A stretch of 51,672 bases of DNA, from positions 1 through 51,672 of the forward strand of contig CAYIBB010000002.1 in assembly GCA_964361585.1 (NCBI GenBank), given 5' to 3'. Shown in pieces: positions 9,159-51,145 of this stretch. The stretch is from Candidatus Woesearchaeota archaeon. GTDB lineage: Archaea > Nanobdellota > Nanobdellia > Pacearchaeales > UBA12030. The position numbers were made by a program, and so were the translations under genes. Each line of letters starts with the position of its first letter. Positions within the stretch are counted from its first letter, which is position 1. Below the pieces are notes generated by a model. It had not been told where the DNA came from and did not search any database. It worked only from the letters and a program-made list of their open reading frames with translations.

Positions 9159-11087
9159 ATGAAAAGAGGACAATTAAGCCTATTTGTAATTATAGCCCTC
9201 GTAATAATTATTGTAGCATCAGCTCTATTCCTTACTTTCTATTTCGGCCCTGTAAGCATTGAACAGATTCCCACAAAGTTCCGACCCTTTGAGGAGTCAT
9301 ATCTTTCCTGTCTCGAGAACTTGATTATGGATGGAGCTAAGACTCTTGGTCAGCAGGCAGGATATGTAAATGTTCCAGCTACCGAGCCAGGAAGTGAATT
9401 TATGCCTTTTGGAAATAATCTTAACTTTCTAGGCAGAGAGATTCCGTACTGGTATTATGTAAGTGCTAATAATCTTGAAGTTTCCAAAATTCCATCGATT
9501 GGCTTTATGAATTCTGAACTTGAAAGTTATGTTGAGGAAAATATTGGCAAATGCAACTCTGTTGTGTCAAATTTTGAGGAACAGGGCTTCGAGATAATTA
9601 CAGCAAGGAACGCAGTGGCAGATGTTAATGTCAAGGATGAGGAAATTTCTGTTTCTGTGAATTATCCAATAACTCTCACTTTAGGAGATACGAAGACGAG
9701 GATTAATTCCCATAATGTTAAACTTTTAGTTAGCTTAGGAAGGCTATATGAAATAGCTAAGAAAATCATGGAGACAGAAAATTCAGACATGTTTGTGGAA
9801 CAGCGCACTATTGACTTACTATCTCTTTATAATGAGTTACCTTCAACTAAGGTCACTTTAGAGTGTAATCCTCAAAGGTGGCAGTATAGTAAAGTTCAAG
9901 GTGCACTTAAGAATGTTATAGCAAATAATATTCAGTTTTTAAAGATAAAAGGTACAAATTATGCAAAGTCTGATAACTACTTTGAAATTCCCGTTGATAG
10001 TGTATCAGCTAGAGATGTAAATGTTAACTTTTTATTTATAGAGCAGCCATTCAAGTTAGAAATAACTCCTGAAAATCTTGAGGGTGAGAGCATCACTGAA
10101 CTAGCTCCTCAATTCCTTCGCAGCTTTTTGTGCCTTTCCTCTTACGATTTTGTGTATGATGTTTCGTATCCTGTTCTAGTTGTGCTACACGATGACAATA
10201 ATTTTGTATTTCAGTTTCCTTTTACTGCTGTAGTGGATAACAATCAGCCTCGCAAGAATCTTTTGGCTGAGGATTTTGGGCAGGTAGATGTGCCTCTTTG
10301 TGGACATAAACTTGCCTTCGGAAAAATATCAACTTACGAAGCTCAAGATGAAAATTTAGTCCCCCTTGAGGGTGTTGATGTAAGCTACAAGTGTATTAAC
10401 TCTATGTGTCATATTGGTCAGACTGAATTGCAGGGCACAGATGCAGTGCTTGAAAATACGCTTCCTCAATGCGTGAATGGCTTTATCATAGCTGAAAAGG
10501 ATGGCTACGCAAGAACAAAACAACAGATTTCTACCAATGTTGATAGTTTAGAAACACAACTTGTGCTTAATAAACTCAATAAGTTGGATGTTAATCTAAG
10601 AATTATTGATCTAAATGGAAATGAAAGAAGCCTTGGCAGTAATGAATTTGCTCTAGTATCTATAGTTGAAGAAGATCGAGAGTTTCAGCAAAGTTTGGTT
10701 TATCCTGAGGATAGTGAAATTGAACTCACAGGAGGACTTTATGAGGTTAAGATTCAGCTCTTTAAGGATCAAGTAACAACCTTTGAGCCACAGAAAATCG
10801 AAAATTGTATAAAAGTTCCAGCAAGTGGAATTTTAGGGATCTTTGGAGCAAAAGAAGAGCAGTGCAATACAGTAGAAATTCCAGCTCAGGAAGTTACTCA
10901 GATGCTTTTCGGTGGAACTTCCTTTAATTGGTTTGTTCAGAAAAGTGATATTGAGAATGCAAACAGAGTCACCCTCTACGCTATTGAGTATGATGTTCCT
11001 GGATTGGTGGATGATCTAAGTAAAATTTATCTTGAACTTGAAGTTAATTCGCAATACGATGTATTTAAGCAGCCAGAATTTAGCTAG
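9159..11087 (+). CDS. Large secreted/surface protein with a type IV pilin-like (class III) signal peptide
   Basis: N-terminus MKRGQ-LSLFVIIALVIIIVASALFL fits the archaeal prepilin-peptidase pattern [KR]-G-[Q]-[L] followed by a hydrophobic helix. The remaining 610 aa have no recognised domain. Lies 25 nt upstream of the giant ORF on the same strand. Confidence 0.7.
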   Translation: MKRGQLSLFVIIALVIIIVASALFLTFYFGPVSIEQIPTKFRPFEESYLSCLENLIMDGAKTLGQQAGYVNVPATEPGSEFMPFGNNLNFLGREIPYWYYVSANNLEVSKIPSIGFMNSELESYVEENIGKCNSVVSNFEEQGFEIITARNAVADVNVKDEEISVSVNYPITLTLGDTKTRINSHNVKLLVSLGRLYEIAKKIMETENSDMFVEQRTIDLLSLYNELPSTKVTLECNPQRWQYSKVQGALKNVIANNIQFLKIKGTNYAKSDNYFEIPVDSVSARDVNVNFLFIEQPFKLEITPENLEGESITELAPQFLRSFLCLSSYDFVYDVSYPVLVVLHDDNNFVFQFPFTAVVDNNQPRKNLLAEDFGQVDVPLCGHKLAFGKISTYEAQDENLVPLEGVDVSYKCINSMCHIGQTELQGTDAVLENTLPQCVNGFIIAEKDGYARTKQQISTNVDSLETQLVLNKLNKLDVNLRIIDLNGNERSLGSNEFALVSIVEEDREFQQSLVYPEDSEIELTGGLYEVKIQLFKDQVTTFEPQKIENCIKVPASGILGIFGAKEEQCNTVEIPAQEVTQMLFGGTSFNWFVQKSDIENANRVTLYAIEYDVPGLVDDLSKIYLELEVNSQYDVFKQPEFS

Positions 11088-11112: not shown

Positions 11113-14100
11113 ATGAATAAAAGAGGAATTAAAATTGTAGAGAAGTTTATTGCAATCTTCTTAATTTTACTTTTAGTAACATCTTCTATAATATATATCC
11201 CTTCATCAACTGCGCAGCAGCAAACGCAGAATGTTAATAATGTCCCTACAGAATTTCCTACAACTACAGTAGTTACCGCAACTCCTTCAGGACCTGTAAT
11301 AACTACTGACTTTATTCCGGCTCAGTTCATTAATGCCTCGCAAGACTTTCTAGTCTTTGTGGACGATTACGAGCCGAAAGTTGTTCGTAGTGACCTTTTG
11401 GAGGAACAGTCAGTTCCAGTTTATGCGAAACTCAGGCTTTTGAATTCAAATCCTCTTATCGAACCAATAATAAGAGATGTGAATGTAAGGCAAACTGAAT
11501 TCAACAATTTTGTTGCTGGAGTAGGACATTTGGATCCACCCGGAAGAAAATTTACTACTGATAATGTTGGTTATGCTATCATTTTCTTGCGAGGAGGGCT
11601 TCCAGAGAAGGAAATTCCCGACAAATTAGACATAAAGGCACAGGCTGACATTATTTATGATTATCAATTCACTCCAGGAGTAAGGCGCGAAGACTTTGTG
11701 CTTGTTCCTTTAAGTGATGATGACTTCGAGGCATTGCAGTTAGAGCATTCCTTTTGGAATAGAGCAGGCTATATTCGAGTAATGGAAGTAAGGGAGAGTT
11801 CTGCTCGTGTTCAAGTTTATGATGGCCTCCGTAATGTGATTGGCAGTTTCGACTTGACCTTACAGCGACCTCAGAGTGCTCCCTTTAAAGCCACAAGGAC
11901 TGCATTCACAACACATGCTGCAACTGGATTTGCAGTAGTACAACTTAATAATATTGAGTTCCCTCAGACAAGAGCAAAGCTGCTAGTAAATGTTAATGGT
12001 CATGAACAAGTTAGAGAAGTTGCAAAAGGCGCAGCTATTTATGAAGGCTCACAATGGTTTGTTGAGGACATTTTCATTATAGATGAGATTAGAGGAACTG
12101 GCTCAGTAGTCTTGAGGAAGAAAGGTACTCCTGAAAGTGTAACTTTGGAATTGAGTAGTCTAGAGGAGGAGAAGAAAGAGGAAGCAAAGAAACTTGCAGC
12201 TCCGATTGAAATTGCGACTAATAAGATAATAGCTTTAGCAAGAGATGAAAGTAAATACATGGGTAAGCCTTACATATGGGGTGGTGAAGCTCTAGAAGAA
12301 GGAGGCTTTGACTGCAGCGGTTTAGTTTATGCTATTTATAACGAATTAGGATTAATTAAAGATAGGCTAACTGCACATGCTTATTACAATTTGTTTAAAC
12401 CTAATGGTCCTGGACTTGACTCAAGTAAATGGAAATCAGGAGATGTTTGCTTTTTTGATTGGGGAAAAGATGGCAAAATAGATCATGCTGCAATTTACAG
12501 TGGATTTCGGAATGGGAATCATTGGGTAATTGATGCCTCTTCAACCCAAAGGCCTGTTAGTGAAAGACCCGGAGTAATAGAAGGCGCAATATCCGAAAAT
12601 AAATTCAAAGGCTGCTTTCGAGTTCCTGGAGCTGAGAAGTATCAGAGTCAAAGTTCACAACCAAACACAAATTCCCCCTCCCCCTCAACCGCATTACCAT
12701 TACCACCAATAGCAACAGCTGCAATTCTTGTTGATGCTCCAGGGAGTGAAGTGCAAGATTCACTTAAGCAAAAGCCAGAATCATGGCCTCAGGGATTTTC
12801 ACTTGAAAAGACAACATTTGATGGAATAAATTATTACAGGGCTTTCATCTCTCAAGAAGAAAGTGAAATTAAAACTTACATTTACAAATCTGAGGATTTT
12901 TCTGTTGGCAAGTCCTTTAAGGTAATTTTAAGGAAGGAAGGATTTTCTGGAAGCGTAACTCTTGTTGGCAGTAAAACTGAAGGTTATACCCAACTTGTGT
13001 TGTTTGATGTAGTAGGCAGAGAGGAAGGCAGGAAGCCAATCAGCATTTCATACGACTCCGTATTCTCTAACACTTACACAATAAATGATGCAATTAATGA
13101 GGCATTGAAGATAAGAGGGGCTGAGAGAGTGGAGATTCCGGCAACTGCGCAGGAGGCTTATAATGAAGCAGTCTCAGCATATTGGGAAGTTGTGAATACT
13201 TTTCCATTCCTAGAGATAGAGGATGAGCAGGACAAGGCCACCCATCAATTTTGGGCAGTAAAAGCACTTCGAGGAATCGTAAGCTTAAGCGATCACTTTA
13301 TACAGCAAAGCTTGAATGTACAAAGGGCTAAGGATGAAAAGATAAGGGCTCTTACTTACTTGAAGGAAAATTATGCGGAACAATTTACAAGAGAAGATGA
13401 GCAGGAACTTAATAGACTCTTTAATTATGATGTGAGTAAGGCCACAGATTCTTTGCTTGAAGATTCCAATACTATAGTGGTATCATTACAGAAAATTAAT
13501 TTCCCAAAAAATAAATTTACTGAATTCTCTCTTGATGGTACTTACTCTGGGGATATATTTTCAGTAGGTAAGCTTTTTGAAGGTTCTGAGTTAGGAGCCT
13601 TGAGTAGTGTAGAAATTTCTGACATTTCAGCTAATCAAGTTACCTTCAACATAGGAAGTGCTCCTAAAACTTTAGGAATCGGCCAGCAAGAAACTTTCGG
13701 GGGAATTACATTCAAGTTAATTGATACGCCAGAGACCGAAGAAATAACAACGACAGAAGGAGAAAGAACTACCTCAAAAGTCAGAAAAGCAAAACTTGAG
13801 ATTTCAATCTCAAATTCACGCGCAAAACTAAAGGAAAATGATTACTTTCTTGGCTGGAAAGTGGATAGCATTAATCCTGACACTGTGATTTTGAAAAAGG
13901 AACAATCCACTAAGTTCTTGCGCAAGGGAATCAACAAAGTTGCATTTCCTCCATCTCTTGATATTACTGTACTTAATTTGAATATTCCCCGTGAAGTAAG
14001 CTTAAGTGTGGTTCCATACACTATTGGAGGCCGTTCTACAGTTTCATTCGATCTACATGTTGCTGTCGAGAAAAGGCTTATTAAAATAGGACCTAAGGCT

Positions 14101-17100
14101 GCGGCAGAACAGGCAAACAAAACTAGAGAAATTTCAGCGCAGATAAAGAAAATCACTGACAGTTTAGGCAATTCTATTGAGACTGGAAAACAAGCATGCT
14201 TTGCAACTTATTCTGCCCTTCTTCTAAAAAACTTTGTACAGAGCTATAAGGGAGAAGCTGTTGCAAGAAAGCGAGTTATGGATTCATTCAAAGATGAATG
14301 CAAAGACAAAGTAGGATTTAACAAACAGTATAATAATTATCATGAATGCTTCCTTGCGCAGGAAAATGAGATTGAGCGTGCAGTTGGAGATATGCAAAAG
14401 GCTATTGATAAGACTGATGCATTGTTGAAGGAAGTGACTGTAAAGAAAGAAGACATCACTGAAGTTGATCCTAATAAATTGAAAGAAGTTCTAAAGAGAG
14501 AATTCCCGAATGTTGATATTGATGAACAAATAAACACTATTTCAAGGTATGAGGAAAAAGCAGGCCATGAAATCTTGTTGCCAAGTGAAGTTAAGGAATT
14601 GGTATTTACACTTTCTGCAAATAAGGAATTTTCTGATGAGAAAGATGGAAGTGTGTTGCGAGAAGATTACAAAGTAAGGACTGATAATAAGGTTAATTTC
14701 TATAATGAAAATGCAGAGGAATTTACTAAAGTACTTGCAGAGTACGAAGAATTTAAACAGAAACTTAAAGATCAGAGCATAAGTCCAGACATGTCTGATC
14801 CAGAGCTACTCAATTATTTCCTTGAGATTAGGCAGCAGCAAGGAACACTTTATGCTCCTCAAGCTATAACATCAGGAGGAAAAACTTACGTCTACGTGTA
14901 TCAAACTAAAGAATGGAAAGAGGCAGAGCGAGAAGGTAATACATTAACTTATACGATAGAAAAAGATGAAAAGAAGGAAAAAATTACAATTCCAATTAAA
15001 ACCTCGTGTGTTGATCAAAAAGAAGGATATCAGATTCAGTATTATGGTTCAGGAAGTAATAGTGGATTGCCTGCAGTAGTTCCATTTCCCATTGAAAGTG
15101 GAGAAGGGTACATTAAAGTTAACAAGTATGATAGCAGCGGGAAGCCTCTCGAGACTTTATTGCATGTTCCTATAGCAGGAGATTGTCAGAACATTTTTTA
15201 CAGAGCAGGTCAAGATATTCCTTCTGTATGGAAGAACTCCATAGATAAAGGACTTGAGGCAGTAAGAATTGCTACTCTTGTTCAGATGAAAGAAGCAGGA
15301 AGAAAGGCTTTCATCTTTGGCAAGGCATATCCCATAGGAAGGCAGATTGTGGAAGCTCCTTCTGCTCAATGTGAGGATTTCATGTCTATAAGCGACTGCG
15401 AAATTCTTTTTCAAGTATGCGATCCTGTAATGTGTCCTAGTTCAAGATGTAACTTTGGAGGAAGATGGCAGGTTTCAGATGTTGTGCAGACAGGAGTTAT
15501 AGGCAGTATCGCATTATGTGCTCCAAACTTCCCACATCCAGTACTTCCTGTATGTTTACCAGGGGTTAGGGCAGGGCTTCTTAATTATGCGAGCATTTTA
15601 GATGCGTATGCCCAGTGCCTTGATGAATCTCGTACCTCAGGAAAAACCACAGGAATTTGTGATCAAATCCGCTCCATTTATACCTGCGAGTTTATATGGC
15701 GAGAGGGAATGGCAATTGCAAATGCAGAAGGAGGACTTTTCGATATACTTTCAAGAACCTTATTCGGAGCCCAAAAAGGAGGCGGCGAGTATCTTGCATT
15801 CAAAGAAAACTTTGACAGAGTGGGAGAAAGTGTGAAATTCTTTACTTCCCAATATGCTGCAACTGCCTTCCAAGCATTCAGAGCAAGAAGCGGGGAAGAA
15901 GTTGGAAGTTTCATTTGCAAGGCTGCATTCTTCGGCAGACTTCCAGGAATAAGTGGAGTGTTTGAAGACCTAAGTAAGCCAGAAAGCCCTCCTCAGTTTT
16001 ATGGCTTCTTCGAGGAAATTCAACATTCAAGTGTAAGCACTCTTGGAGTATCTACTTTGTCAGCACCTCAATCTCAGTATAAGGTATTCTTTCACATTTT
16101 CGCAGGGGAAAATAAAGGAGTCTTCTACCGAGTTTACTTAACAGATCCTGTGCCTGTTCCAGGATTCTTTACAGCGCCTATATTAATAATTCCTCGTCCT
16201 GAGACGCAGGGCTTTATTCCTGCAAATCAGTTTAAAGACGAAACTCTCGATTTCCTCGCAACTTCAGGATACAGACAGCTCTGTGTAGAAATTGATGGAG
16301 TTCCTTACTGTGGCTTTAAGCAAACAACTTCTGATTTCCTTGTGAACTTTCTTAATGACAAGTACTTGAATGAACAGCTTAGTAAGAAAGTGACTAGTGC
16401 GCAGGAATGCATTTCTGGATCAAGCAGCCTACTTCCTTTGATTCCAGGAACTAATTTTGGATTGAGTGCAGGAGCTACAGAGAGCATCGAAGGAGGTGTG
16501 TTGCGAAGAGGTATTACTCGTGTGTGCAGCGAGGAAAATCCCGGTAAGGGAACAAACCCTGAAAGATGGGCTCAAGCGGGGAGTTGTGGAAAGGTCCAGA
16601 ATAAAGAACTTACATGTTGGCTTGATACCTCATCTGTAAAGGGAGCCATCACAGATCTCAAGTTTGAAACTGCAGTATTGCAAGATGCACAACAATTCAA
16701 CACGAAGTTCCTAGAGGAAGAGGGATTTTTCACTCCTGAAAAAACTGAAAGCGAGATTGAGAATTTGAGAGGCTTATTGCAGAATGCTAAAAGAAATGAG
16801 AATGCAGTTCTCAAGGGAGAATTCAAGCCAAGTTCTGCACAGGAAAGTTACCGAGAAGTTTTAGGAGCTTCACAAGTTCTTTTCGAGAAGACTTTAAATC
16901 CAGAGGCAAAGGCTGAAGCTAAGCTGACAGTAGCAGATGCAAATGCAGGCATAGCAAGAATTGTGCTTCAGGAGCAGATTATTGCTTACAAACAAAAGTT
17001 AAGAGAAAGAGTAGAGCAGGAAGCTGCAAGCCAATCCACACAGACAACTCCCCCTCAACCAACAACAACTCCTTCGATCCCCGCCACACCGACTACACCA

Positions 17101-17871
17101 ACTCCAACTCAACCAACACCAAGTGAAGAAATTGTGGAAAAGCAGATAGGAAATGTGCGGGCGGGAGATACTTTTAAGGTAGGACAATTTGACTTTAAAT
17201 TAATAAGAATGGAACAAGAGGTAAAGGATAATTTAGCCACCAATGAATTTGCTGCTGTTTTAGAAGTGGAATTTAATGGAGAATTATTAAGATGTTACGA
17301 TACACCAATTCCTCAGTTTGGTGCATTAAGGCTTAAAAGTGATGGTACTATAGATTATGGGTTAAATAAAAATATAGATCCAGAATGTAAAGACATAAGT
17401 TTCAAAGATGTTAGAAATACCCAATTTGCAATTGCTACTGCAGTCGTAACAGTTAAAATTTCTAAGGAAAATGAAATATCTAGTGGTAGCAAAATTAAAT
17501 TTGATAGTGATACAGATGAAGAATTTACTGTAAGAATGGGTAGTAAATACTTTATAATCAAATTCAAAGGATTTGATAATAAGAGACATCCTGATTTAGG
17601 ACGAGATGTTGGTGTTGCTATGCTCGAATTAAGAAGAGGAACTACTGCAGGAATTCAATATCTTGATTGCTGGAAAGGCCAAGGCATTGAAAGAAATGTT
17701 GTAGTATCAGCTGTTCCAACTTCTTCAACATATTTTGGAGATACTATATGGCAAGGATCAATTCCTAATTTTGATGGGATTGATCAAGCATTTTGTAGCG
17801 AAATATCCTTTGAGGACATCAAAGTTAATCTGAATGAGAATTCTATTGAAGCCACTATAGATCTAAAGTAA
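11113..17871 (+). CDS. Giant (2,252 aa) secreted multidomain protein with an NlpC/P60 domain
   Basis: Uninterrupted 6.76-kb ORF in a stop-rich AT-rich genome. It has an N-terminal signal-anchor (FIAIFLILLLVTSSIIY), an NlpC/P60 domain (aa ~365-505), Pro/Ser/Thr linkers (aa ~511-532 and ~1975-2005), a Cys-rich block (>=20 Cys, nt ~15000-16630) and two related C-terminal modules. Confidence 0.9.
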   Translation: MNKRGIKIVEKFIAIFLILLLVTSSIIYIPSSTAQQQTQNVNNVPTEFPTTTVVTATPSGPVITTDFIPAQFINASQDFLVFVDDYEPKVVRSDLLEEQSVPVYAKLRLLNSNPLIEPIIRDVNVRQTEFNNFVAGVGHLDPPGRKFTTDNVGYAIIFLRGGLPEKEIPDKLDIKAQADIIYDYQFTPGVRREDFVLVPLSDDDFEALQLEHSFWNRAGYIRVMEVRESSARVQVYDGLRNVIGSFDLTLQRPQSAPFKATRTAFTTHAATGFAVVQLNNIEFPQTRAKLLVNVNGHEQVREVAKGAAIYEGSQWFVEDIFIIDEIRGTGSVVLRKKGTPESVTLELSSLEEEKKEEAKKLAAPIEIATNKIIALARDESKYMGKPYIWGGEALEEGGFDCSGLVYAIYNELGLIKDRLTAHAYYNLFKPNGPGLDSSKWKSGDVCFFDWGKDGKIDHAAIYSGFRNGNHWVIDASSTQRPVSERPGVIEGAISENKFKGCFRVPGAEKYQSQSSQPNTNSPSPSTALPLPPIATAAILVDAPGSEVQDSLKQKPESWPQGFSLEKTTFDGINYYRAFISQEESEIKTYIYKSEDFSVGKSFKVILRKEGFSGSVTLVGSKTEGYTQLVLFDVVGREEGRKPISISYDSVFSNTYTINDAINEALKIRGAERVEIPATAQEAYNEAVSAYWEVVNTFPFLEIEDEQDKATHQFWAVKALRGIVSLSDHFIQQSLNVQRAKDEKIRALTYLKENYAEQFTREDEQELNRLFNYDVSKATDSLLEDSNTIVVSLQKINFPKNKFTEFSLDGTYSGDIFSVGKLFEGSELGALSSVEISDISANQVTFNIGSAPKTLGIGQQETFGGITFKLIDTPETEEITTTEGERTTSKVRKAKLEISISNSRAKLKENDYFLGWKVDSINPDTVILKKEQSTKFLRKGINKVAFPPSLDITVLNLNIPREVSLSVVPYTIGGRSTVSFDLHVAVEKRLIKIGPKAAAEQANKTREISAQIKKITDSLGNSIETGKQACFATYSALLLKNFVQSYKGEAVARKRVMDSFKDECKDKVGFNKQYNNYHECFLAQENEIERAVGDMQKAIDKTDALLKEVTVKKEDITEVDPNKLKEVLKREFPNVDIDEQINTISRYEEKAGHEILLPSEVKELVFTLSANKEFSDEKDGSVLREDYKVRTDNKVNFYNENAEEFTKVLAEYEEFKQKLKDQSISPDMSDPELLNYFLEIRQQQGTLYAPQAITSGGKTYVYVYQTKEWKEAEREGNTLTYTIEKDEKKEKITIPIKTSCVDQKEGYQIQYYGSGSNSGLPAVVPFPIESGEGYIKVNKYDSSGKPLETLLHVPIAGDCQNIFYRAGQDIPSVWKNSIDKGLEAVRIATLVQMKEAGRKAFIFGKAYPIGRQIVEAPSAQCEDFMSISDCEILFQVCDPVMCPSSRCNFGGRWQVSDVVQTGVIGSIALCAPNFPHPVLPVCLPGVRAGLLNYASILDAYAQCLDESRTSGKTTGICDQIRSIYTCEFIWREGMAIANAEGGLFDILSRTLFGAQKGGGEYLAFKENFDRVGESVKFFTSQYAATAFQAFRARSGEEVGSFICKAAFFGRLPGISGVFEDLSKPESPPQFYGFFEEIQHSSVSTLGVSTLSAPQSQYKVFFHIFAGENKGVFYRVYLTDPVPVPGFFTAPILIIPRPETQGFIPANQFKDETLDFLATSGYRQLCVEIDGVPYCGFKQTTSDFLVNFLNDKYLNEQLSKKVTSAQECISGSSSLLPLIPGTNFGLSAGATESIEGGVLRRGITRVCSEENPGKGTNPERWAQAGSCGKVQNKELTCWLDTSSVKGAITDLKFETAVLQDAQQFNTKFLEEEGFFTPEKTESEIENLRGLLQNAKRNENAVLKGEFKPSSAQESYREVLGASQVLFEKTLNPEAKAEAKLTVADANAGIARIVLQEQIIAYKQKLRERVEQEAASQSTQTTPPQPTTTPSIPATPTTPTPTQPTPSEEIVEKQIGNVRAGDTFKVGQFDFKLIRMEQEVKDNLATNEFAAVLEVEFNGELLRCYDTPIPQFGALRLKSDGTIDYGLNKNIDPECKDISFKDVRNTQFAIATAVVTVKISKENEISSGSKIKFDSDTDEEFTVRMGSKYFIIKFKGFDNKRHPDLGRDVGVAMLELRRGTTAGIQYLDCWKGQGIERNVVVSAVPTSSTYFGDTIWQGSIPNFDGIDQAFCSEISFEDIKVNLNENSIEATIDLK
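12205..12627 (+). other. NlpC/P60 papain-like hydrolase domain inside the giant ORF
   Basis: GKPYIWGGEALEEGGFDCSGLVYAIY (Cys401, nt 12313-12315), ...GKIDHAAIYSG (His458, nt 12484-12486) and ...GNHWVIDAS (His470): the canonical Cys-His-His arrangement and spacing. Confidence 0.8.
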
Positions 17872-26033: not shown

Positions 26034-26119
26034 TGCCTCGGGGGGGATTCGAACCCCCGACTTCTGCCTTACTCAAAAAATTCATGAGAGCAGCGCTCTA
26101 CCAACTGAGCTACCGAGGC
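26034..26119 (-). tRNA. tRNA with CAU anticodon (elongator Met or Ile2) carrying a 13-nt intron at or near the canonical 37/38 site
   Basis: Acceptor GCCTCGG/CCGAGGC plus A73, D-arm GCTC-AGTTGGTA-GAGC, anticodon stem CTGCT/GGCAG enclosing 20 nt (CTCATGAATTTTTTGAGTAA), T-arm GGGGG-TTCGAAT-CCCCC. The acceptor stem is not initiator-like. Confidence 0.8.
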
Positions 26120-26633: not shown

Positions 26634-26739
26634 TGGACTCGCCGGGATTCGAACCCGGAATCTCTCCCCAGCCAAGGGAGCATTCTTTAACAAACTTTTC
26701 ACGCTTTTTTCAAAAAGTTTACCGTTGAACTACGAGCCC
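26634..26739 (-). tRNA. tRNA-Ala (anticodon GGC, G3:U70) with a ~32-nt D-loop intron
   Basis: Acceptor GGGCTCG/CGAGTCC (G3:U70 Ala identity pair) plus A73, anticodon arm CTCCC-TTGGCTG-GGGAG, T-arm CCGGG-TTCGAAT-CCCGG. D-stem GTTC...GAAT encloses 41 nt, including the hairpin AACTTTT/AAAAGTT. Confidence 0.85.
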
Positions 26740-44478: not shown

Positions 44479-44946
44479 ATGGTTAATCCAATTATTATAG
44501 TAATACTCCTAAGCATTTCGCCCATTTCAGAGCTTAGAGGTGCTATTCCAACTGGAATTGCCCTTGGACTTGATCTATGGACAGTATTCTTAATTGCAGT
44601 AATCGCAAACATACTAATTTCTGCCGTAATCTTCCTTTTCTTAGATTTTATACATAAAAGACTTATTACCAATTCTAATTACAGAAAGTTCTTTAACAGG
44701 TACGTTGAACATATAAGAACAAGAAAAAATAGTGTTCAGAAAAAAATCAATCTTTATGGTTTGCCGGCATTGGCAATTTTCGTGGCAATTCCTTTACCCT
44801 TGACTGGCGCTTACACTGGCACTTTAATTGCATGGCTTCTTAATCTTAATCGGTGGAAGGCATTCGCTGCTATTGCTCTTGGAGTAGTTGTGGCTGGACT
44901 ACTTGTGACTTTTGTTACTCTTGGTATTGTTAGCCTTATTTTTTAA
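44479..44946 (+). CDS. Small multidrug-export-family (COG2426-like) membrane protein
   Basis: ISPISELRGAIPTGIALGL motif and four predicted TM helices; 155 aa. Confidence 0.6.
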   Translation: MVNPIIIVILLSISPISELRGAIPTGIALGLDLWTVFLIAVIANILISAVIFLFLDFIHKRLITNSNYRKFFNRYVEHIRTRKNSVQKKINLYGLPALAIFVAIPLPLTGAYTGTLIAWLLNLNRWKAFAAIALGVVVAGLLVTFVTLGIVSLIF

Positions 44947-45538
44947 TAATCCTAAAAACTTCTTTCAAGTCAGAGTAAATAGGTACTCCTTTAACTCTAA
45001 AAATCTTTACAGTAAGAATCCAGATTCCAACTACTATGATTGTGGAGCCTAGTATCCAAAATGTAATATGGACCTTATTAAAAAGATCGAGACCATACTG
45101 CACTAGAATTACAATTAGTATCATAATTCTTAATACATTGACTAGCAAGAACGCGAGGGAAGTGAAAAGAAAGATTTTGATTCTATCGCTAATGCTTATG
45201 CCTTTAGTAAGTAAATTCAGGATTAAGAGCAGATAGTAGGCAGAGCCGGCAATGCAGGCATTGATTAACTCTATTACATAACTGTTAATGTAAAAGACGT
45301 TTCCTTCCACAAGCATTGGGTAGAATAAACTTATAAGGAATGAGCTTAATAGCACCGTTAGAGGTGTGAAGACAGCATAAAATAATGCTAAAGAGTTTAC
45401 TGAAAATAGCAGCAGAATTGCCAGCCTTGCACCAAAATCTATTAAATAGTTCCTAGCTTTTAATGCAATTACTGGCTTATCCTTACTATGTCTGCCTCTT
45501 TTTGCTCTTTGCACTTTATTTTTCATCCTATCTTTCAT
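44936..45538 (-). CDS. Small exosortase/archaeosortase-family protein
   Basis: Polytopic 200-aa membrane protein with the three family signature positions in order: Cys (ELINACIAGSAYYL), Arg (LVNVLRIMILI) and His (NKVHITFWILGS). Confidence 0.6.
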   Translation of the reverse strand: MKDRMKNKVQRAKRGRHSKDKPVIALKARNYLIDFGARLAILLLFSVNSLALFYAVFTPLTVLLSSFLISLFYPMLVEGNVFYINSYVIELINACIAGSAYYLLLILNLLTKGISISDRIKIFLFTSLAFLLVNVLRIMILIVILVQYGLDLFNKVHITFWILGSTIIVVGIWILTVKIFRVKGVPIYSDLKEVFRIIKK

Positions 45539-45594
45539 CCTATAATAGGATAAGGTAAGAAAAACTATTTAAATAAATTTTCCCCTCTCGCAGA

Positions 45595-46209
45595 ATGAAA
45601 CCAGAAAAGAAGATTCTTTTAACCTATATAACCTTCTTTATACTATTTCTTATACTTATAATATTTCCATCTGCAGACCTATATTTAGTTTCTAAAATTC
45701 AAGAGATTAGAAATCCAACCTTGGACACTGTAATGTTGTGGATTACTAACATAGGTTCAGGACTTATTATCTTTTTTATAATTTCGACCCTATTCTTGTA
45801 CGAGGAAAGGAAGAGGCGCTGGATTCTCCCTCTTTGGCTAGGCTTTTTACTTTCTTCTTTAATTGTGTATCTTCTGAAGTCTTCAATATCAAGGCCTCGA
45901 CCATTCTTGGAATTAGGAATTCCTGCCGAGAGCGATTCACCAAACTCGAGTTTTCCAAGTGGACATACAACTATGGCCTTTGCCGCCTTACCTGTAATTG
46001 ATAAAGAGTTCCGAAAGATAAAGCTGTTTTGGATTATTTTTGCAGTTCTAGTGGGGTTTTCAAGGTTTTATCTTGCAGTTCATCATATAAGTGATGTTAT
46101 CTTTGGAGCAATGTTAGGCTATACCCTCTCGTTAATTTTTGTTAAGTTGGAAGAGAAAAAAGTGTTCTCAAATTTCTTAAGTAAATTCAAGAAACAAGTA
46201 AGGAAATGA
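45595..46209 (+). CDS. PAP2-superfamily lipid phosphatase (polyprenyl-diphosphate phosphatase-like)
   Basis: Acid-phosphatase motifs KSSISRPRP, PSGHT and SRFYLAVHHISD. A leaderless-type TATA (tatttaaata) lies about 25 nt upstream. Confidence 0.85.
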   Translation: MKPEKKILLTYITFFILFLILIIFPSADLYLVSKIQEIRNPTLDTVMLWITNIGSGLIIFFIISTLFLYEERKRRWILPLWLGFLLSSLIVYLLKSSISRPRPFLELGIPAESDSPNSSFPSGHTTMAFAALPVIDKEFRKIKLFWIIFAVLVGFSRFYLAVHHISDVIFGAMLGYTLSLIFVKLEEKKVFSNFLSKFKKQVRK

Positions 46210-46808
46210 ATCTAAATTCAAAGTTTGAAATTAAAAGGCAAATTGTGCATATTTTGCTAGGACTTGTAATTATACTCCTTGCACTTTATGATCGAACTTT
46301 TGCACTATGGTTGATCTTTAGTTTTTTAATGTTAGGAATCATTCTTGCTTTGATCTCTCTCAAATTAGATGTTCCAATAATCTCCTGGTTCCTGAAAAAT
46401 TTCGAACGTGATGAGTACAGGGAAAAATTTCCTTTTAAAGGAGCAATTTTCTTTTTTGCAGGGAGTTTGCTTACTCTGAAATTGTTTTCATTTGATATTG
46501 CCCTCGCGTCTATCTCTATTTTAACTTTTGGCGATTCCTTTTCACATCTTGTAGGAATATATGGGAAGTATAAAAGCAAACTTGATCTAAAGAGGAGAAA
46601 AAATCTAGAGGGAATGGTTGTTGGCATTGTTGTTGGCGCAATTGTAGCAAGTTTCTTCGTAAATATAATTTCTGCGTTAGCTGCTTCTGCTTTAGCAATG
46701 ATAGCTGAAAATATTTCGGTAAAGTTGCAGGGAGAAGAAGTTGATGATAATATCATAATTCCTGTCGTGGCAGGGACTGTTCTCCATATCTTGAAGAATT
46801 ATATCTGA
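46206..46808 (+). CDS. Dolichol/polyprenol kinase-like protein (COG0170, CTP-dependent)
   Basis: FGDSFSHLVGIYGKYK...KNLEGMVVG...VDDNIIIP motifs of the Sec59/dolichol-kinase family. A 4-nt overlap with the PAP2 gene. Confidence 0.7.
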   Translation: MNLNSKFEIKRQIVHILLGLVIILLALYDRTFALWLIFSFLMLGIILALISLKLDVPIISWFLKNFERDEYREKFPFKGAIFFFAGSLLTLKLFSFDIALASISILTFGDSFSHLVGIYGKYKSKLDLKRRKNLEGMVVGIVVGAIVASFFVNIISALAASALAMIAENISVKLQGEEVDDNIIIPVVAGTVLHILKNYI

Positions 46809-46869
46809 GTATTAAATTTTCCTTAAATCGAAAGATTTAAATAGTTTTAATTTTATAATGGTAACAGTT

Positions 46870-46913
46870 CTAGTGTAATGTTAGAGGTACACTAAAGTAC
46901 ATTAGTACACTAG
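46870..46913. repeat. GTACAYTA direct repeats flanked by an inverted copy in the leader of the surface-protein gene
   Basis: CTAGTGTA (46870-46877) is the reverse complement of TACACTAG (46906-46913). GTACACTA at 46887-46894, GTACATTA at 46897-46904, GTACACTA at 46905-46912. Confidence 0.5.
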
Positions 46914-46927
46914 ATAGGCTAAGGACA

Positions 46928-48889
46928 ATGAAAAAGATATTTTTTGCGACACTCGCATTTGTTTTTGTAGTTTTTACGGCATTCAATGTTTTGGCTGCAG
47001 TTCAAATTAATTCAGTAAGCACTGCAGCAGGAATTCCAGGAGATACTCTGACTTTGAATGCGAATGTTACTAATACAGACTTAACTAGTTCAGTAAATGT
47101 TGTCTTTAATAGCACAATCCTTACAGGCCCTTCTGGATTTACAATCAATGCTCCTTCAATAAATCCTGCAACTATTCCTGCTAATACCACACAATTAGTA
47201 TTCTTTACAATAAACATTCCTTCCGTACTAACGGGAGATTATTCTGGGACTTTAACCGCAATAGGACCAAATACAGTCACAAAGCAGTATATTATTACTG
47301 TAAACTCCAAGGATGCTCTTGATGTGTTGGAAACCTCACTTTCATTGAAGGAGCAACCAGGGGAGCAAGCTTCTGGGACAATCACTATAAAGAACGCAGG
47401 AAGTAGCAATCTTAACTTTGTGTCCTCAAGTTTCTCGTTTAATGGAGCAGACTTTTCTGATGGTACTGAAAATATTACCTTGGGTTTTAGCCCTAATACT
47501 TTTACAATAAAGCCAGCTGAAACTAAATCAGTAGTGGTTAGTGCATTAATTGGTGATGATATAACTATTGATGACTATTCTGGCTCAATTTCAGTAAATT
47601 CTGGAAGTGCCATAGATACATTTACTTTGGAGGTAGAAGCACGCCCTGATCTATGTGATGAGGGTCCTAAAGGTGGAAATCTTGAAATTACAAGAATAGT
47701 TGACCCTTCTTCTGGCGAGGATTTCAAGCCACTCGAAACAGTGGAAGTTACAGTAAGAGTACAGAATAATGATGATGACGAGCTTGATATTATTATTGAG
47801 GCATTCCTTGTAGACAAAGAAGATAATGACGAACTTGACAGTGTAGAGTTTGAAACTACAATAGACGAGGATGATACAGAAGATTATGATCTTGAGTTAA
47901 AAATTCCTGCCGACGTAAAGGAAAGTTCAAACAGATATGCAATTTATGTAAAGGTTTTCGAGGATGGAGAGGAAGATAACCAATGTCAGGAAAAAAGTAC
48001 AGATATAGAAATAAAGAAAGATAATCATAATGTTGCAGTTGATGAAGACGAGGTCAATATTCCTGACACTCTTGTATGTGGCATAACAAATTCAGTTGAC
48101 GTTACTGTGGTCAATACTGGTTCTGACAATGAAGATGATGTTACTGTAACCGTAAAGATTCCAGAATTAGGAATTTCTGACACTAGTAGTAAGTTCGACA
48201 TCGATGAGGAAGAGGATGAGAAGGTGCAATTATCACTTTTAGTTCCAAGGGATGTTACAGATGGAGAGTACACCCTGCGATTTGAGGTTAGAGATGAAGA
48301 TGATGATATTTTTGATGATGGAATCTTCGAGCAGAGTGTAAGTATCTCCTGTGTCTCAGGGCCGCCAACACAGCCACCTACTCCTCCAAGTACTTCACAA
48401 GTAACATTAACCTTAACAAAGAAATCCTTCGAGGTAGAGTCAGGACAGAGGCTTGATGTTACCCTCGTATTGCGAAATAATGCTAATACAGATACTGTAT
48501 TAACTGTAAATCTTGAGCCTAGTGGAAATTGGGCATCTCTCACTTCTCAGATTGTGGCACTGAAAGCAGGAGAGAGTAAAACCTTAACACTGAACTTAGC
48601 ATCAAAATCAGGAACTGATGATGGAACTTACACAGCTAGGGTTTCAGTAAGATCTAATGGAAATGAAGTAGCATCTGATAGTATTACTACCAGAGTTGCT
48701 TCTGCTGGAGGAGTTTCAGGAACAGGCGGAGTAATAGGAAGAACAATTCTTGAGGAAAACTTGCCTTTCGTAGTAATTAACATTATCCTTGTTATCATTA
48801 TAATAGTACTTATAGTGTGGATTTCTATGAGAAGGTCAAGGAAAGAAGTAAGTTCTGAAAGAACTTCCTCAAGTCCGAGAAAAAGATAA
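46928..48889 (+). CDS. S-layer-like/CARDB-repeat surface protein with a C-terminal TM plus basic anchor
   Basis: Signal peptide (MKKIFFATLAFVFVVFTAFNVLA), repeated beta-sandwich-like modules (e.g. VVNTGSDNEDDVTVTVKIPELG, GESKTLTLNLASKSGTDDGTYTARVSV), acidic D/E-rich stretches and N-x-S/T sequons. The C-terminus reads EENLPFVVINIILVIIIIVLIVWISMRRSRK followed by an 18-aa tail. Confidence 0.75.
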   Translation: MKKIFFATLAFVFVVFTAFNVLAAVQINSVSTAAGIPGDTLTLNANVTNTDLTSSVNVVFNSTILTGPSGFTINAPSINPATIPANTTQLVFFTINIPSVLTGDYSGTLTAIGPNTVTKQYIITVNSKDALDVLETSLSLKEQPGEQASGTITIKNAGSSNLNFVSSSFSFNGADFSDGTENITLGFSPNTFTIKPAETKSVVVSALIGDDITIDDYSGSISVNSGSAIDTFTLEVEARPDLCDEGPKGGNLEITRIVDPSSGEDFKPLETVEVTVRVQNNDDDELDIIIEAFLVDKEDNDELDSVEFETTIDEDDTEDYDLELKIPADVKESSNRYAIYVKVFEDGEEDNQCQEKSTDIEIKKDNHNVAVDEDEVNIPDTLVCGITNSVDVTVVNTGSDNEDDVTVTVKIPELGISDTSSKFDIDEEEDEKVQLSLLVPRDVTDGEYTLRFEVRDEDDDIFDDGIFEQSVSISCVSGPPTQPPTPPSTSQVTLTLTKKSFEVESGQRLDVTLVLRNNANTDTVLTVNLEPSGNWASLTSQIVALKAGESKTLTLNLASKSGTDDGTYTARVSVRSNGNEVASDSITTRVASAGGVSGTGGVIGRTILEENLPFVVINIILVIIIIVLIVWISMRRSRKEVSSERTSSSPRKR

Positions 48890-48933: not shown

Positions 48934-49284
48934 TTATTTTGTTCCGCTTAATGCTACTAGGGATCCTATAAATGCCATAAGCCATGAAAGTATTAAGCCG
49001 ACTTGAACAAGCCATCCGCTCCATTCTCGCACGTCAATAAATGTTCCCTGCAAGAGTACGAATGATGCCGCAAAAAGTGCAAAAGCAGCAGCTCGCACAA
49101 ACCATGGATTAGCTTCTTTTGTAACGCCGGCGCTACTCATGACTGGAATAAGCAGAAACCATGCAACTGCCGTAATAACTGATCCTACAAATCCGCCTGT
49201 CACGGAGAGGCCAGAAAAACTTACAGCTGCAACTGCAAACAATAGCATAATCAAAGGAAAACTCCCTTTCCATTCTACAGCCAT
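48934..49284 (-). CDS. Hypothetical membrane protein
   Basis: About four TM helices. Start moved to Met23 (49284, preceded by GAGGT) because the longer ORF would contain its own BRE/TATA element. Confidence 0.5.
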   Translation of the reverse strand: MAVEWKGSFPLIMLLFAVAAVSFSGLSVTGGFVGSVITAVAWFLLIPVMSSAGVTKEANPWFVRAAAFALFAASFVLLQGTFIDVREWSGWLVQVGLILSWLMAFIGSLVALSGTK

Positions 49285-49328
49285 TTTTACCTCTTTTAAT
49301 TTTATTTTAAATGTAATTTTTTTACGCT

Positions 49329-49343
49329 TTATAAACCTTTCGA
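49329..49343 (-). promoter_or_regulatory. BRE/TATA promoter (TCGAAAGGTTTATAA), copy 1
   Basis: Minus-strand cgaaaggtTTTATAAa about 48 nt upstream of the ATG at 49284; identical 15-mer at 49785-49799. Confidence 0.5.
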
Positions 49344-49422
49344 CATACACTCTATAGAATGAAAAGAAAAAATAAAAAAGAAATAAGAATTCAAAAAGGT
49401 TTCTTTAGCTCTGCTCGAGTTT

Positions 49423-49758
49423 TTAACCTCTTGCCAAGCTAAATACGTGTTTTAATGCAACTATCACGGTTGCTGGGACAAACATTACGTTTATTGCGTT
49501 AAGAATGTTCTTTGTAACGTCAAAGATGCTTAGTGCTTGTGCTCCAAGCGAACTTGCTATTACCAATGCTAGGGAACCTAGCAAGAAAGGCATTACTTCC
49601 TTTTCTGTAATGTTAAGCAATCCTACAATTATTCCTAGTATTATAAGAATGGCTCCCACCACCTTGTTTACTGGTCCTAATGCCCCAAGTATCACTGCCA
49701 AGATCACTCCAATTAGGAATGCCCAACTTCCGATCAAGCTACCAGCTTGTTTTGCCAT
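49423..49758 (-). CDS. Hypothetical membrane protein
   Basis: 111 aa, three to four TM helices rich in Gly/Ala/Ile; no recognised family. Confidence 0.5.
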   Translation of the reverse strand: MAKQAGSLIGSWAFLIGVILAVILGALGPVNKVVGAILIILGIIVGLLNITEKEVMPFLLGSLALVIASSLGAQALSIFDVTKNILNAINVMFVPATVIVALKHVFSLARG

Positions 49759-51006: not shown

Positions 51007-51145
51007 AGCAAGGGGTGGGATTCGAACCCACGAAATACGCGGTAGCCGCTTTTCTTTGTGGAGCTTTCCTATTTTCTTGATTAAACTTCTTTTCTAAAGA
51101 AGTTTATCTGCAGCCGCGCGCCTTAGACCACTTGGCTACCCTTGC
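51007..51145 (-). tRNA. tRNA-Cys (anticodon GCA, U73) with a 64-nt intron in or next to the anticodon loop
   Basis: Acceptor GCAAGGG/CCCTTGC plus U73 (Cys identity), D-arm GCC(A)-...-GGC, anticodon stem CGCGG/CCGCG enclosing 71 nt that begin CTGCAGA, T-arm GTGGG-TTCGAAT-CCCAC. Confidence 0.8.

Follow-up and report, generated by a model that had tools for sequence, protein, structure and literature searches.

A pacearchaeosortase and its putative S-layer substrate in a DPANN archaeon, with a divergently encoded PAP2 phosphatase as partner

Does a small cluster of genes in a DPANN archaeon encode a machinery for sorting a surface protein, and which of its genes belong to that machinery? The cluster lies in a 51,672-nucleotide (nt) stretch of contig CAYIBB010000002.1 from Candidatus Woesearchaeota archaeon; we refer to this whole stretch as the window. 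It comprises a gene for a 200-amino-acid (aa) membrane protein resembling archaeosortases, a divergently oriented pair of genes for a PAP2-family phosphatase and for a further membrane protein (called gene 3 here), and a gene for a 653-aa protein that ends in a hydrophobic helix and a basic tail. Our analysis indicates that the locus is very probably a dedicated pacearchaeosortase / PACE-CTERM protein-sorting system of a DPANN archaeon from the Pacearchaeota-Woesearchaeota group. The sortase/substrate cluster is genuine but for the most part unremarkable, since systems of its kind have been curated before. A preliminary description of this DNA had proposed an enzyme of the exosortase/archaeosortase family beside a surface protein whose C-terminus bears a sortase-type signal, in analogy to ArtA/PGF-CTERM, and curated hidden Markov models (HMMs), invariant putative catalytic residues and near-universal synteny bear this out. 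It had also proposed that the sorting signal was undescribed. This does not hold, since the NCBIfam models NF033505 and NF033506 already cover both sortase and substrate, and NCBI routinely annotates homologues under those names.

The sortase and the surface protein

The 200-aa protein scored 173.2 bits with the NCBIfam model NF033505 'pacearchaeosortase' (cut-off 80), its residues 37-198 aligning to profile positions 6-166 of 167, and it also passed the superfamily signature TIGR04178 with 26.2 bits (cut-off 23, residues 92-179). The assignment to the exosortase/archaeosortase superfamily is thereby upheld by two curated models, and one homologue (P0073) has a precomputed match to PF09721 (Exosortase_EpsH). 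The three motifs on which the assignment had been based, NACIAGS (Cys95), NVLRI (Arg137) and KVHITF (His157), are all present. Cys95, Arg137 and His157 are invariant, together with Arg119, in 120 sortase homologues and in a 26-sequence alignment (A1); the block A-C-I-A-G-S-A-Y-Y-L-L is equally invariant, as are a number of positions occupied by Trp, Pro or Asp. Cys95, Arg137 and His157 are the putative catalytic residues. The protein has 5-6 hydrophobic segments, and its AlphaFold2 (AF2) model consists mostly of long helices (predicted local distance difference test, pLDDT, 85). A search of PDB sequences with the sortase profile returned nothing usable. The public gene call (P0001) starts at Met5, which gives a protein of 196 aa.

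A search of 5.8 billion proteins returned 270 sortase homologues, many of them called 'pacearchaeosortase' by NCBI and found in metagenome-assembled genomes (MAGs) of Pacearchaeota or Nanoarchaeota. The window sortase shares at most 58% identity with any homologue found and ∼45% with the bulk of the family. In its subclade, aliphatic residues replace three otherwise conserved aromatics at positions 39, 162 and 174. Two pacearchaeosortase loci, L009 (LCJG01000042.1) and L061 (CAYRAD010000265.1), lie on contigs assigned to 'Candidatus Collierbacteria bacterium' and to 'uncultured Vicingus sp.', respectively; the probable cause is mis-binning of archaeal contigs, not the presence of true copies in bacteria.

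The 653-aa protein scored 250.3 bits with NF033506 'PACE-CTERM-PROT, putative S-layer protein' (cut-off 110). Its residues 10-633 aligned to profile positions 11-625 of 627, so that the match reaches into the C-terminal helix, and its homologues are named 'putative S-layer protein' (surface-layer protein) by NCBI. The protein is acidic and Ser/Thr-rich and contains several Ig-like domains. The signal-peptide-like segment that had been noticed at its N-terminus is present (MKKIFFATLAFVFVVFTAFNVLA|A, about residues 1-23). Two Ig-like beta-sandwich models scored above their cut-offs (PF10633, 45.9 bits; PF11614, 30.4 bits), and the CARDB domain of the preliminary description fell short with 15.9 bits (cut-off 22.7). 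A PDB sequence search with the protein found no solved homologue.

We then compared the gene neighbourhood in 81 loci, that is, the window and 80 loci from different species-level genomes, whose six-frame open reading frames (ORFs) were searched with profiles. Of the 55 loci whose upstream flank extends to at least 4 kb, 54 have an S-layer-family gene within 3 kb of the sortase gene on its upstream side; in the window the distance is 1.39 kb. As a control, the L1/L10/P1 ribosomal genes that flank the cluster in the window are retained in only 5 of the 81 loci. Because these genes are so seldom retained, the S-layer/sortase linkage is selective and not simply an inherited gene order, and shared descent as the sole cause of the conserved order was rejected.

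The C-terminal tail and its recognition

The tail of the 653-aa protein consists of the motif ENLPF, the helix FVVINIILVIIIIVLIVWIS with Asn618, a basic cluster RRSRK (residues 635-639) and a 14-residue Ser/Arg-rich extension (residues 640-653). The helix is very hydrophobic (residues 614-632, mean hydropathy 3.55), and its core INIILVIIIIV aligns with the family consensus LNVILVIIIIIVA. ENLPF had been put forward as the sorting motif; it occurs in none of the orthologues and was rejected as a recognition motif. To define what the family does share, a tail logo was anchored on the pattern N-[IVLF]-[IVLA]-L-[IVLA] near the C-terminus, which 69 of 79 family ORFs match and which fixes the Asn and the Leu at +3 by construction. 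The rough consensus reads N-W-Y-L-W-G-I-G-A-L-N-V-I-L-V-I-I-I-I-I-V-A-V-R-V-A-R-K. Counted from the Asn, the independent columns are Trp at -6 (62 of the 69 anchored tails), Gly at -3 (55) and Ile at +7 (68), and the protein ends 18-20 residues past the Asn in 59 of the 69. The conserved signature is therefore W-x-x-G-x-x-N-[VIL]-[IVL]-L within the helix, followed by a basic end. Since the Trp, Gly and Ile columns and the distance to the end are conserved far beyond the needs of anchoring, the tail appears to be more than a plain membrane anchor.

The window tail is a divergent variant of this signal. The WYLWGIG block is missing from it, the protein continues for 36 residues beyond the Asn, and the tail types closest to it are those of L030 and L045 (…TVNIILVVAIILVLMWIMRVRR…), two loci that also carry gene 3. 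The stretch after the basic cluster had been flagged as an obstacle, in that classical PGF-CTERM signals have no such extension. This concern loses its force on two counts. The S-layer tail of the closest syntenic relative (L081) carries a 29-residue Ser/Arg/Lys extension, which marks the extra tail as a trait of the subclade. Moreover, Haloferax ArtA processes a PGF signal that precedes a whole extra domain (PMC6098224), and an additional tail is for that reason no argument against processing.

Outside the S-layer family the tail is absent from all ORFs of the window and of ∼1 Mb of related loci (best E = 0.34), and among the other window ORFs with 100 aa or more, none has a signal peptide together with a C-terminal helix and a basic end. 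The expectation that further proteins would share the signal was thus not borne out within that range. Because the tail is confined to a single protein family there, this appears to be a one-enzyme, one-substrate system. The enzyme and its substrate also appear to vary together: where position 174 of the sortase is Ile or Leu (six cases), the partner tail always lacks Gly at -3, whereas 55 of the 63 sortases with Phe at this position have a partner tail with that Gly (Fisher p = 2.5e-5, not corrected for phylogeny). This co-variation is a hint, not proof.

Some members of the substrate family depart from the common arrangement. L036 carries a tandem pair of S-layer-family genes on the upstream side of its sortase gene, and in both products a long Lys-rich tail follows the helix. 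In a group of close S-layer homologues (P0121-P0130), Asp replaces the helix Asn (FW..DIVLV), and at least one member of this Asp-type group, P0122 in L086, has no sortase gene nearby.

Relative to the curated NF033505/NF033506 pair, both window proteins score about twice the cut-off, the putative catalytic residues are invariant, the two genes are neighbours, and the taxa are the same (MAGs of Pacearchaeota, Woesearchaeota and Nanoarchaeota). The window differs in belonging to a divergent subclade with aliphatic residues for the three aromatics, in a tail without WYLWGIG and with the 14-residue Ser/Arg extension, in the opposite strand of the S-layer gene, and in the insertion of gene 3 after the PAP2 gene.

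The PAP2 phosphatase, gene 3 and other neighbours

The assignment of the first gene of the divergent pair to the PAP2 phosphatases is secure (PF01569, 80.8 bits; cut-off 27.2). None of the substrate-specific PAP2 models in NCBIfam was passed. The best of them was NF047884 (SepP, 60.3 against a cut-off of 250), and the nearest sub-threshold resemblance is to undecaprenyl-diphosphatases. Of the 75 loci with enough flank, 38 have a PAP2 gene in divergent orientation to the sortase gene and no more than 300 bp away from it. The spacer between the two genes is exactly 48 bp in 18 loci, and nearly all of the spacers listed (L002-L080) contain a centred, near-invariant element, AAAT-TATTTAAATA-sATTT. 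Its core TATTTAAATA is a perfect 10-bp palindrome, present in two copies in the 51.7-kb window against 0.34 expected, and the copy in the window's sortase-PAP2 spacer is centred 24.5 bp from the PAP2 ATG. Archaeal TATA boxes usually lie at -26/-27. Since the position of the palindrome fits this, the element is probably a shared symmetric promoter, with a TATA box flanked on both sides by a B recognition element (BRE-TATA-BRE), from which the sortase and PAP2 genes are both transcribed with no leader or almost none. A precisely spaced palindromic element common to both genes points to their co-regulation, and PAP2 is a real partner of the sortase. The S-layer gene is preceded by ATTTAAATAG, which suggests a promoter of its own with a leader of ∼60 nt, unlike the apparently leaderless sortase/PAP2 pair.

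Gene 3 had been described as dolichol-kinase-like. No direct match supports this name: the window protein has no Pfam match at E ≤ 1 and no NCBIfam match, an NCBIfam scan of the whole gene-3 family returned nothing, and a PDB sequence search with the gene-3 profile gave nothing usable. What stands is a remote similarity at the level of the family. PF01148 weakly matches 6 of 19 family members (best 18.6 bits, under the cut-off of 24), and hhalign aligned the family profile with E. coli CdsA over 49 columns that include the GDSxSHLxGxxGKxK...K..EG block (69.6% probability, E = 4.2e-5). Two gene-3 homologues carry the name 'dolichol kinase' at the Joint Genome Institute (JGI), and archaeal dolichol kinase has been assigned to the cytidylyltransferase superfamily by Makarova et al. 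(PMC5898192). A dolichol-kinase-like function for gene 3 is plausible but unproven on this sequence evidence.

A profile search of 1.84 billion representatives recovered 5,991 relatives of gene 3, whose domain is covered by no Pfam or NCBIfam model. Lengths of 290-433 aa were seen for about 30 of the top 150; all ten of these long proteins that were scanned (P0170, P0180, P0197, P0198, P0200, P0202, P0211, P0215, P0235 and P0285) are PAP2::gene-3 fusions, with PAP2 as the N-terminal half and the gene-3 domain as the C-terminal half. One fusion is annotated from a MAG of Candidatus Gracilibacteria, a bacterium of the candidate phyla radiation (CPR), and the cluster names among gene-3 relatives and fusions include, beside the two JGI entries, 'phosphatase PAP2 family protein' for one fusion. 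No description of this fusion architecture was found in a literature search. Because natural fusions from many other organisms join the two proteins independently, the overlapping PAP2 gene and gene 3 of the window can be tied to one function.

All four ORFs lie where the preliminary description had placed them, and its 4-nt overlap between PAP2 and gene 3 is confirmed (Table 1). Its implied four-gene unit is not conserved as such. Tested for co-occurrence, the S-layer/sortase linkage stands and PAP2 accompanies the sortase gene in about half of the loci, but gene 3 adjoins it in only 3 of the 81 (the window, L030 and L045), to which metagenomic relatives add L081/L082 and L083. The sortase homologue P0004 (53% identity), the closest one for which a long contig exists, is encoded on L081 and L082, and these follow the order of the window: L1-L10-P1-PF06695, then the sortase gene, then PAP2, gene 3 and the S-layer gene, then tm138-like and tm111-like genes. 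They differ from it by one extra membrane protein between gene 3 and the S-layer gene. In L083 the sortase gene, PAP2 and gene 3 stand together with no adjacent S-layer gene.

Three further membrane-protein genes flank the cluster. The tm111 family occurs in 48 of the 81 loci, and in 32 of 42 with enough flank it lies no more than 6 kb upstream of the sortase gene, beyond the S-layer gene. An orthologue of tm138 occupies the equivalent position in L081 (phmmer E = 5.7e-38), and the gene is conserved in the subclade of the window. Neither protein belongs to a Pfam or NCBIfam family, and a comparison of the two detected no paralogy between them. It is possible that tm111 and tm138 are accessory components of the sorting or S-layer system. 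The protein encoded at the other end of the cluster matches PF06695 with 123.5 bits. This family is found in 32 of the 81 loci, nearly always as the immediate downstream neighbour of the sortase gene and in convergent orientation to it; this recurrence suggests that the two are linked in function or regulation.

Table 1. Coordinates of the sortase locus and its flanking genes in the window
Feature	Position	Strand	Remarks
PF06695 'small multidrug export'-family membrane protein	44479..44946	+	convergent with the sortase gene, 11-nt 3' overlap
Sortase gene	44936..45538	-	200-aa ORF; pacearchaeosortase, polytopic membrane protein
Palindrome TATTTAAATA	45566..45575	strandless	centre of the divergent sortase-PAP2 spacer 45539-45594
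PAP2-family integral-membrane lipid phosphate phosphatase	45595..46209	+	204 aa; PF01569
Gene 3, polytopic membrane protein	46206..46808	+	200 aa; 4-nt overlap with the end of PAP2
TATA-like element ATTTAAATAG	46835..46844	+	∼88 bp upstream of the S-layer gene ATG
PACE-CTERM-type putative S-layer protein	46928..48889	+	653 aa; NF033506
C-terminal sorting-signal region of the 653-aa protein	48755..48886	+	residues 610-653
tm138, small membrane protein	48934..49350	-	four hydrophobic segments; likely real start at internal Met23
tm111, small membrane protein	49423..49758	-	neighbour of the S-layer gene

Elsewhere in the window, a giant ORF of 2252 aa (11113-17871, plus strand) contains a single recognisable domain, an NlpC/P60 peptidase at residues 384-483, and may encode one of the proteins for the cell surface or for host interaction that are typical of DPANN archaea. 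A 642-aa ORF (9159-11087, plus strand) with no Pfam match at E ≤ 1e-5 precedes it. Two Rfam tRNA matches on the minus strand, 26634-26739 and 51007-51145, span 106 and 139 nt and were missed by ARAGORN; these genes probably contain introns. ARAGORN itself reported an odd 86-nt tRNA with an undetermined anticodon at 26034-26119.

Proposed mechanism, alternatives and meaning

Several observations weigh against reading the locus as a sortase system with lipid-active partners. On the side of the enzyme, PF09721 matches the right region of the sortase with 21.6 bits, under its gathering score of 25.7 (E = 1.6e-4), and a Foldseek search of the PDB with the AF2 model gave no match at E ≤ 0.001. On the side of the substrate, the 653-aa protein owes the name 'S-layer' to its family model, which itself calls it putative. 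A profile built from 63 mainstream tails, with the window, L030 and L045 left out, scored the window tail at a non-significant E = 0.72, although this was still its top match among the 169 ORFs of the window, and the S-layer tail of L081 has Ser in place of the helix Asn. The S-layer and sortase genes mostly share a strand; in the window, L011 and L067 they lie on opposite strands. As to the partners, PAP2 is missing next to the sortase gene in about half of the related loci, and Foldseek with the AF2 model of gene 3 (pLDDT 91) found no PDB match at E ≤ 0.001 and no CdsA- or CarS-like fold. Finally, a literature search found no paper naming 'pacearchaeosortase', 'PACE-CTERM' or 'paceosortase'; a 2018 review of archaeal surface biogenesis treats only ArtA-ArtE, in a subset of Euryarchaeota (PMC6098224).

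With these points in mind, a mechanism can be proposed. The 653-aa protein would be exported through the Sec pathway by its N-terminal signal peptide and held transiently in the membrane by the C-terminal helix and basic cluster. The 200-aa enzyme would recognise the conserved part of the helix, and Cys95, with Arg137 and His157, would remove the C-terminal segment through a thioester. Resolution of this thioester by a lipid nucleophile would place the new C-terminus on a membrane lipid, probably yielding a lipid-anchored surface-layer protein. By analogy with ArtA, for which C-terminal cleavage, ArtA-dependent lipidation and a need for conserved catalytic residues are documented and a thioester model has been proposed (PMC6098224; PMC7157517), we infer both the cleavage and the lipid anchoring of the 653-aa protein. 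PAP2 would be transcribed divergently from the sortase gene off the palindromic TATA-like element and, in the subclade of the window, its translation would be coupled to that of gene 3. The most likely task of PAP2, alone or together with gene 3, would be to keep up a pool of phosphorylated isoprenoid lipid (polyprenyl or dolichyl phosphate, or an archaeol-based lipid) for building the envelope, and this lipid could be either the anchor itself or a glycan carrier. The most specific version, in which PAP2, coupled or fused to the CdsA/dolichol-kinase-like protein, generates or regenerates the very isoprenoid lipid that the pacearchaeosortase attaches to the S-layer C-terminus, strikes us as decidedly unlikely.

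For the lipid genes, the preliminary description had offered a different role, that of a dolichyl-phosphate recycling pair. In such a pair PAP2 would act as a dolichyl-diphosphate (Dol-PP) phosphatase after transfer by AglB, and gene 3 as a CTP-dependent dolichol kinase, both serving N-glycosylation of the S-layer protein. Of the competing explanations this one survives best, as a possible though doubtful reading. The best PAP2 matches are indeed polyprenyl-diphosphatases, all far under their cut-offs. The remote CdsA/dolichol-kinase similarity of gene 3 and the JGI name on its two homologues point the same way, and a phosphatase::kinase-like fusion would be sensible if both activities give polyprenyl phosphate. 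Compared with known polyprenyl-phosphate recycling enzymes (BcrC/PgpB/SepP and dolichol kinase COG0170/arCOG01881), the pair shares a clear PAP2 domain and shows a remote match to the CdsA-family signature block, but passes no equivalog model and has no PDB fold match; the kinase assignment remains sub-threshold, and Foldseek recovers no CdsA-like fold. The presumed substrate of the pathway fits poorly as well. The 653-aa protein had been called rich in sequons, yet it has 4 N-x-S/T sites against 8.4 ± 2.5 in composition-matched shuffles. Depletion is the rule across the S-layer family (mean z = -0.76), with 11 of 62 members below -2 and two without any sequon, so that the notion of a sequon-rich glycoprotein was rejected. 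Because the family is depleted, the idea that PAP2 and gene 3 serve N-glycosylation of the substrate is weakened, and the rationale from sequons and glycosylation is not upheld. In addition, no AglB/STT3 was found among the ten largest ORFs of the window, and L083 keeps PAP2 and gene 3 next to the sortase gene without an adjacent S-layer gene.

It is less likely still that the sortase only cleaves its substrate and attaches no lipid, the surface protein being retained by protein-protein contacts (for example with tm111 or tm138) and PAP2 and gene 3 being unrelated polyprenyl-phosphate housekeeping genes that share a promoter region. Such a scheme would accommodate the lack of PssA/PssD-type ethanolamine-lipid genes at the locus, the position of tm111 next to the S-layer gene in 32 of 42 loci, and the many loci in which PAP2 is missing beside the sortase gene; even for ArtA, the enzyme's own part in lipidation is left unresolved (PMC6098224). 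It is at odds with the shared, precisely spaced palindrome, which implies co-regulation of sortase and PAP2, and with L083, where PAP2 and gene 3 accompany the sortase gene instead of the S-layer gene. Cleavage and lipidation are, moreover, coupled in Haloferax (PMC7157517).

The weakest alternative, which we consider very improbable, is that the C-terminal helix is a permanent type-I anchor, as in Sulfolobus SlaB, and that the 200-aa protein acts elsewhere or as a scaffold or chaperone for S-layer assembly: the non-significant window tail, the Ser/Arg/Lys-rich cytoplasmic extensions of the window and L081 proteins, which could be functional, the close S-layer homologue P0122 away from any sortase gene and the minor membrane-anchored S-layer fraction discussed even for Haloferax (PMC6098224) would suit it, but it runs against the invariant Cys/Arg/His triad, the helix Trp, Gly, Ile and end distance conserved beyond what hydrophobic anchoring needs, the adjacency of S-layer and sortase genes in 54 of 55 loci, and the restriction of the candidate signal to one protein family.

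A sorting system of the ArtA kind is the reading to be placed beside known examples. With ArtA/PGF-CTERM of Haloferax volcanii and methanogens, it shares the superfamily, the Cys/Arg/His set and a surface-layer substrate with a motif-helix-basic signal, and a lipid-metabolism gene adjoins the sortase gene as pssA/pssD adjoin artA in Methanosarcina (PMC6098224; PMC7157517). The differences are considerable. The window proteins hit no ArtA-family NCBIfam model, the tail has no PGF motif, and the enzyme has 200 aa, whereas H. volcanii artA is 912 bp long (about 300 aa). There is apparently one dedicated substrate here, in contrast to 1 to 52 in ArtA genomes; the neighbours are PAP2 and, in some loci, a CdsA/DolK-like protein in place of PssA/PssD, and the lineage is DPANN, not Euryarchaeota. 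The bacterial exosortases (XrtA etc.) with their PEP-CTERM substrates resemble the system in the TIGR04178 signature, in the tripartite logic of the signal and in a weak similarity to XrtR. The window sortase nevertheless scores 19.6 with the exosortase R model (NF012138) against a cut-off of 150, and here there is no PEP motif and an archaeal host without an outer membrane or an exopolysaccharide (EPS) locus.

What this analysis adds to the curated pair is a definition of the sorting tail by its consensus, evidence that a single enzyme serves a single substrate, a hint of co-variation between them, a conserved and co-regulated PAP2 partner and the PAP2::gene-3 fusions. The new material proper is modest, namely the divergent tail subclade, the PAP2 partner with its symmetric promoter and the fusions, and these leads leave the identity of the locus unchanged. 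If PAP2 did supply the lipid that the sortase attaches, this would be a lipid-anchoring route distinct from the PssA/PssD (archaetidylethanolamine) route proposed for ArtA, operating in lipid-scavenging DPANN archaea, and PAP2::gene-3 would be a previously unrecognised two-activity lipid-phosphate module. For archaea with tiny genomes that live on other cells, a single major surface protein and the way in which it is anchored are central to their biology.

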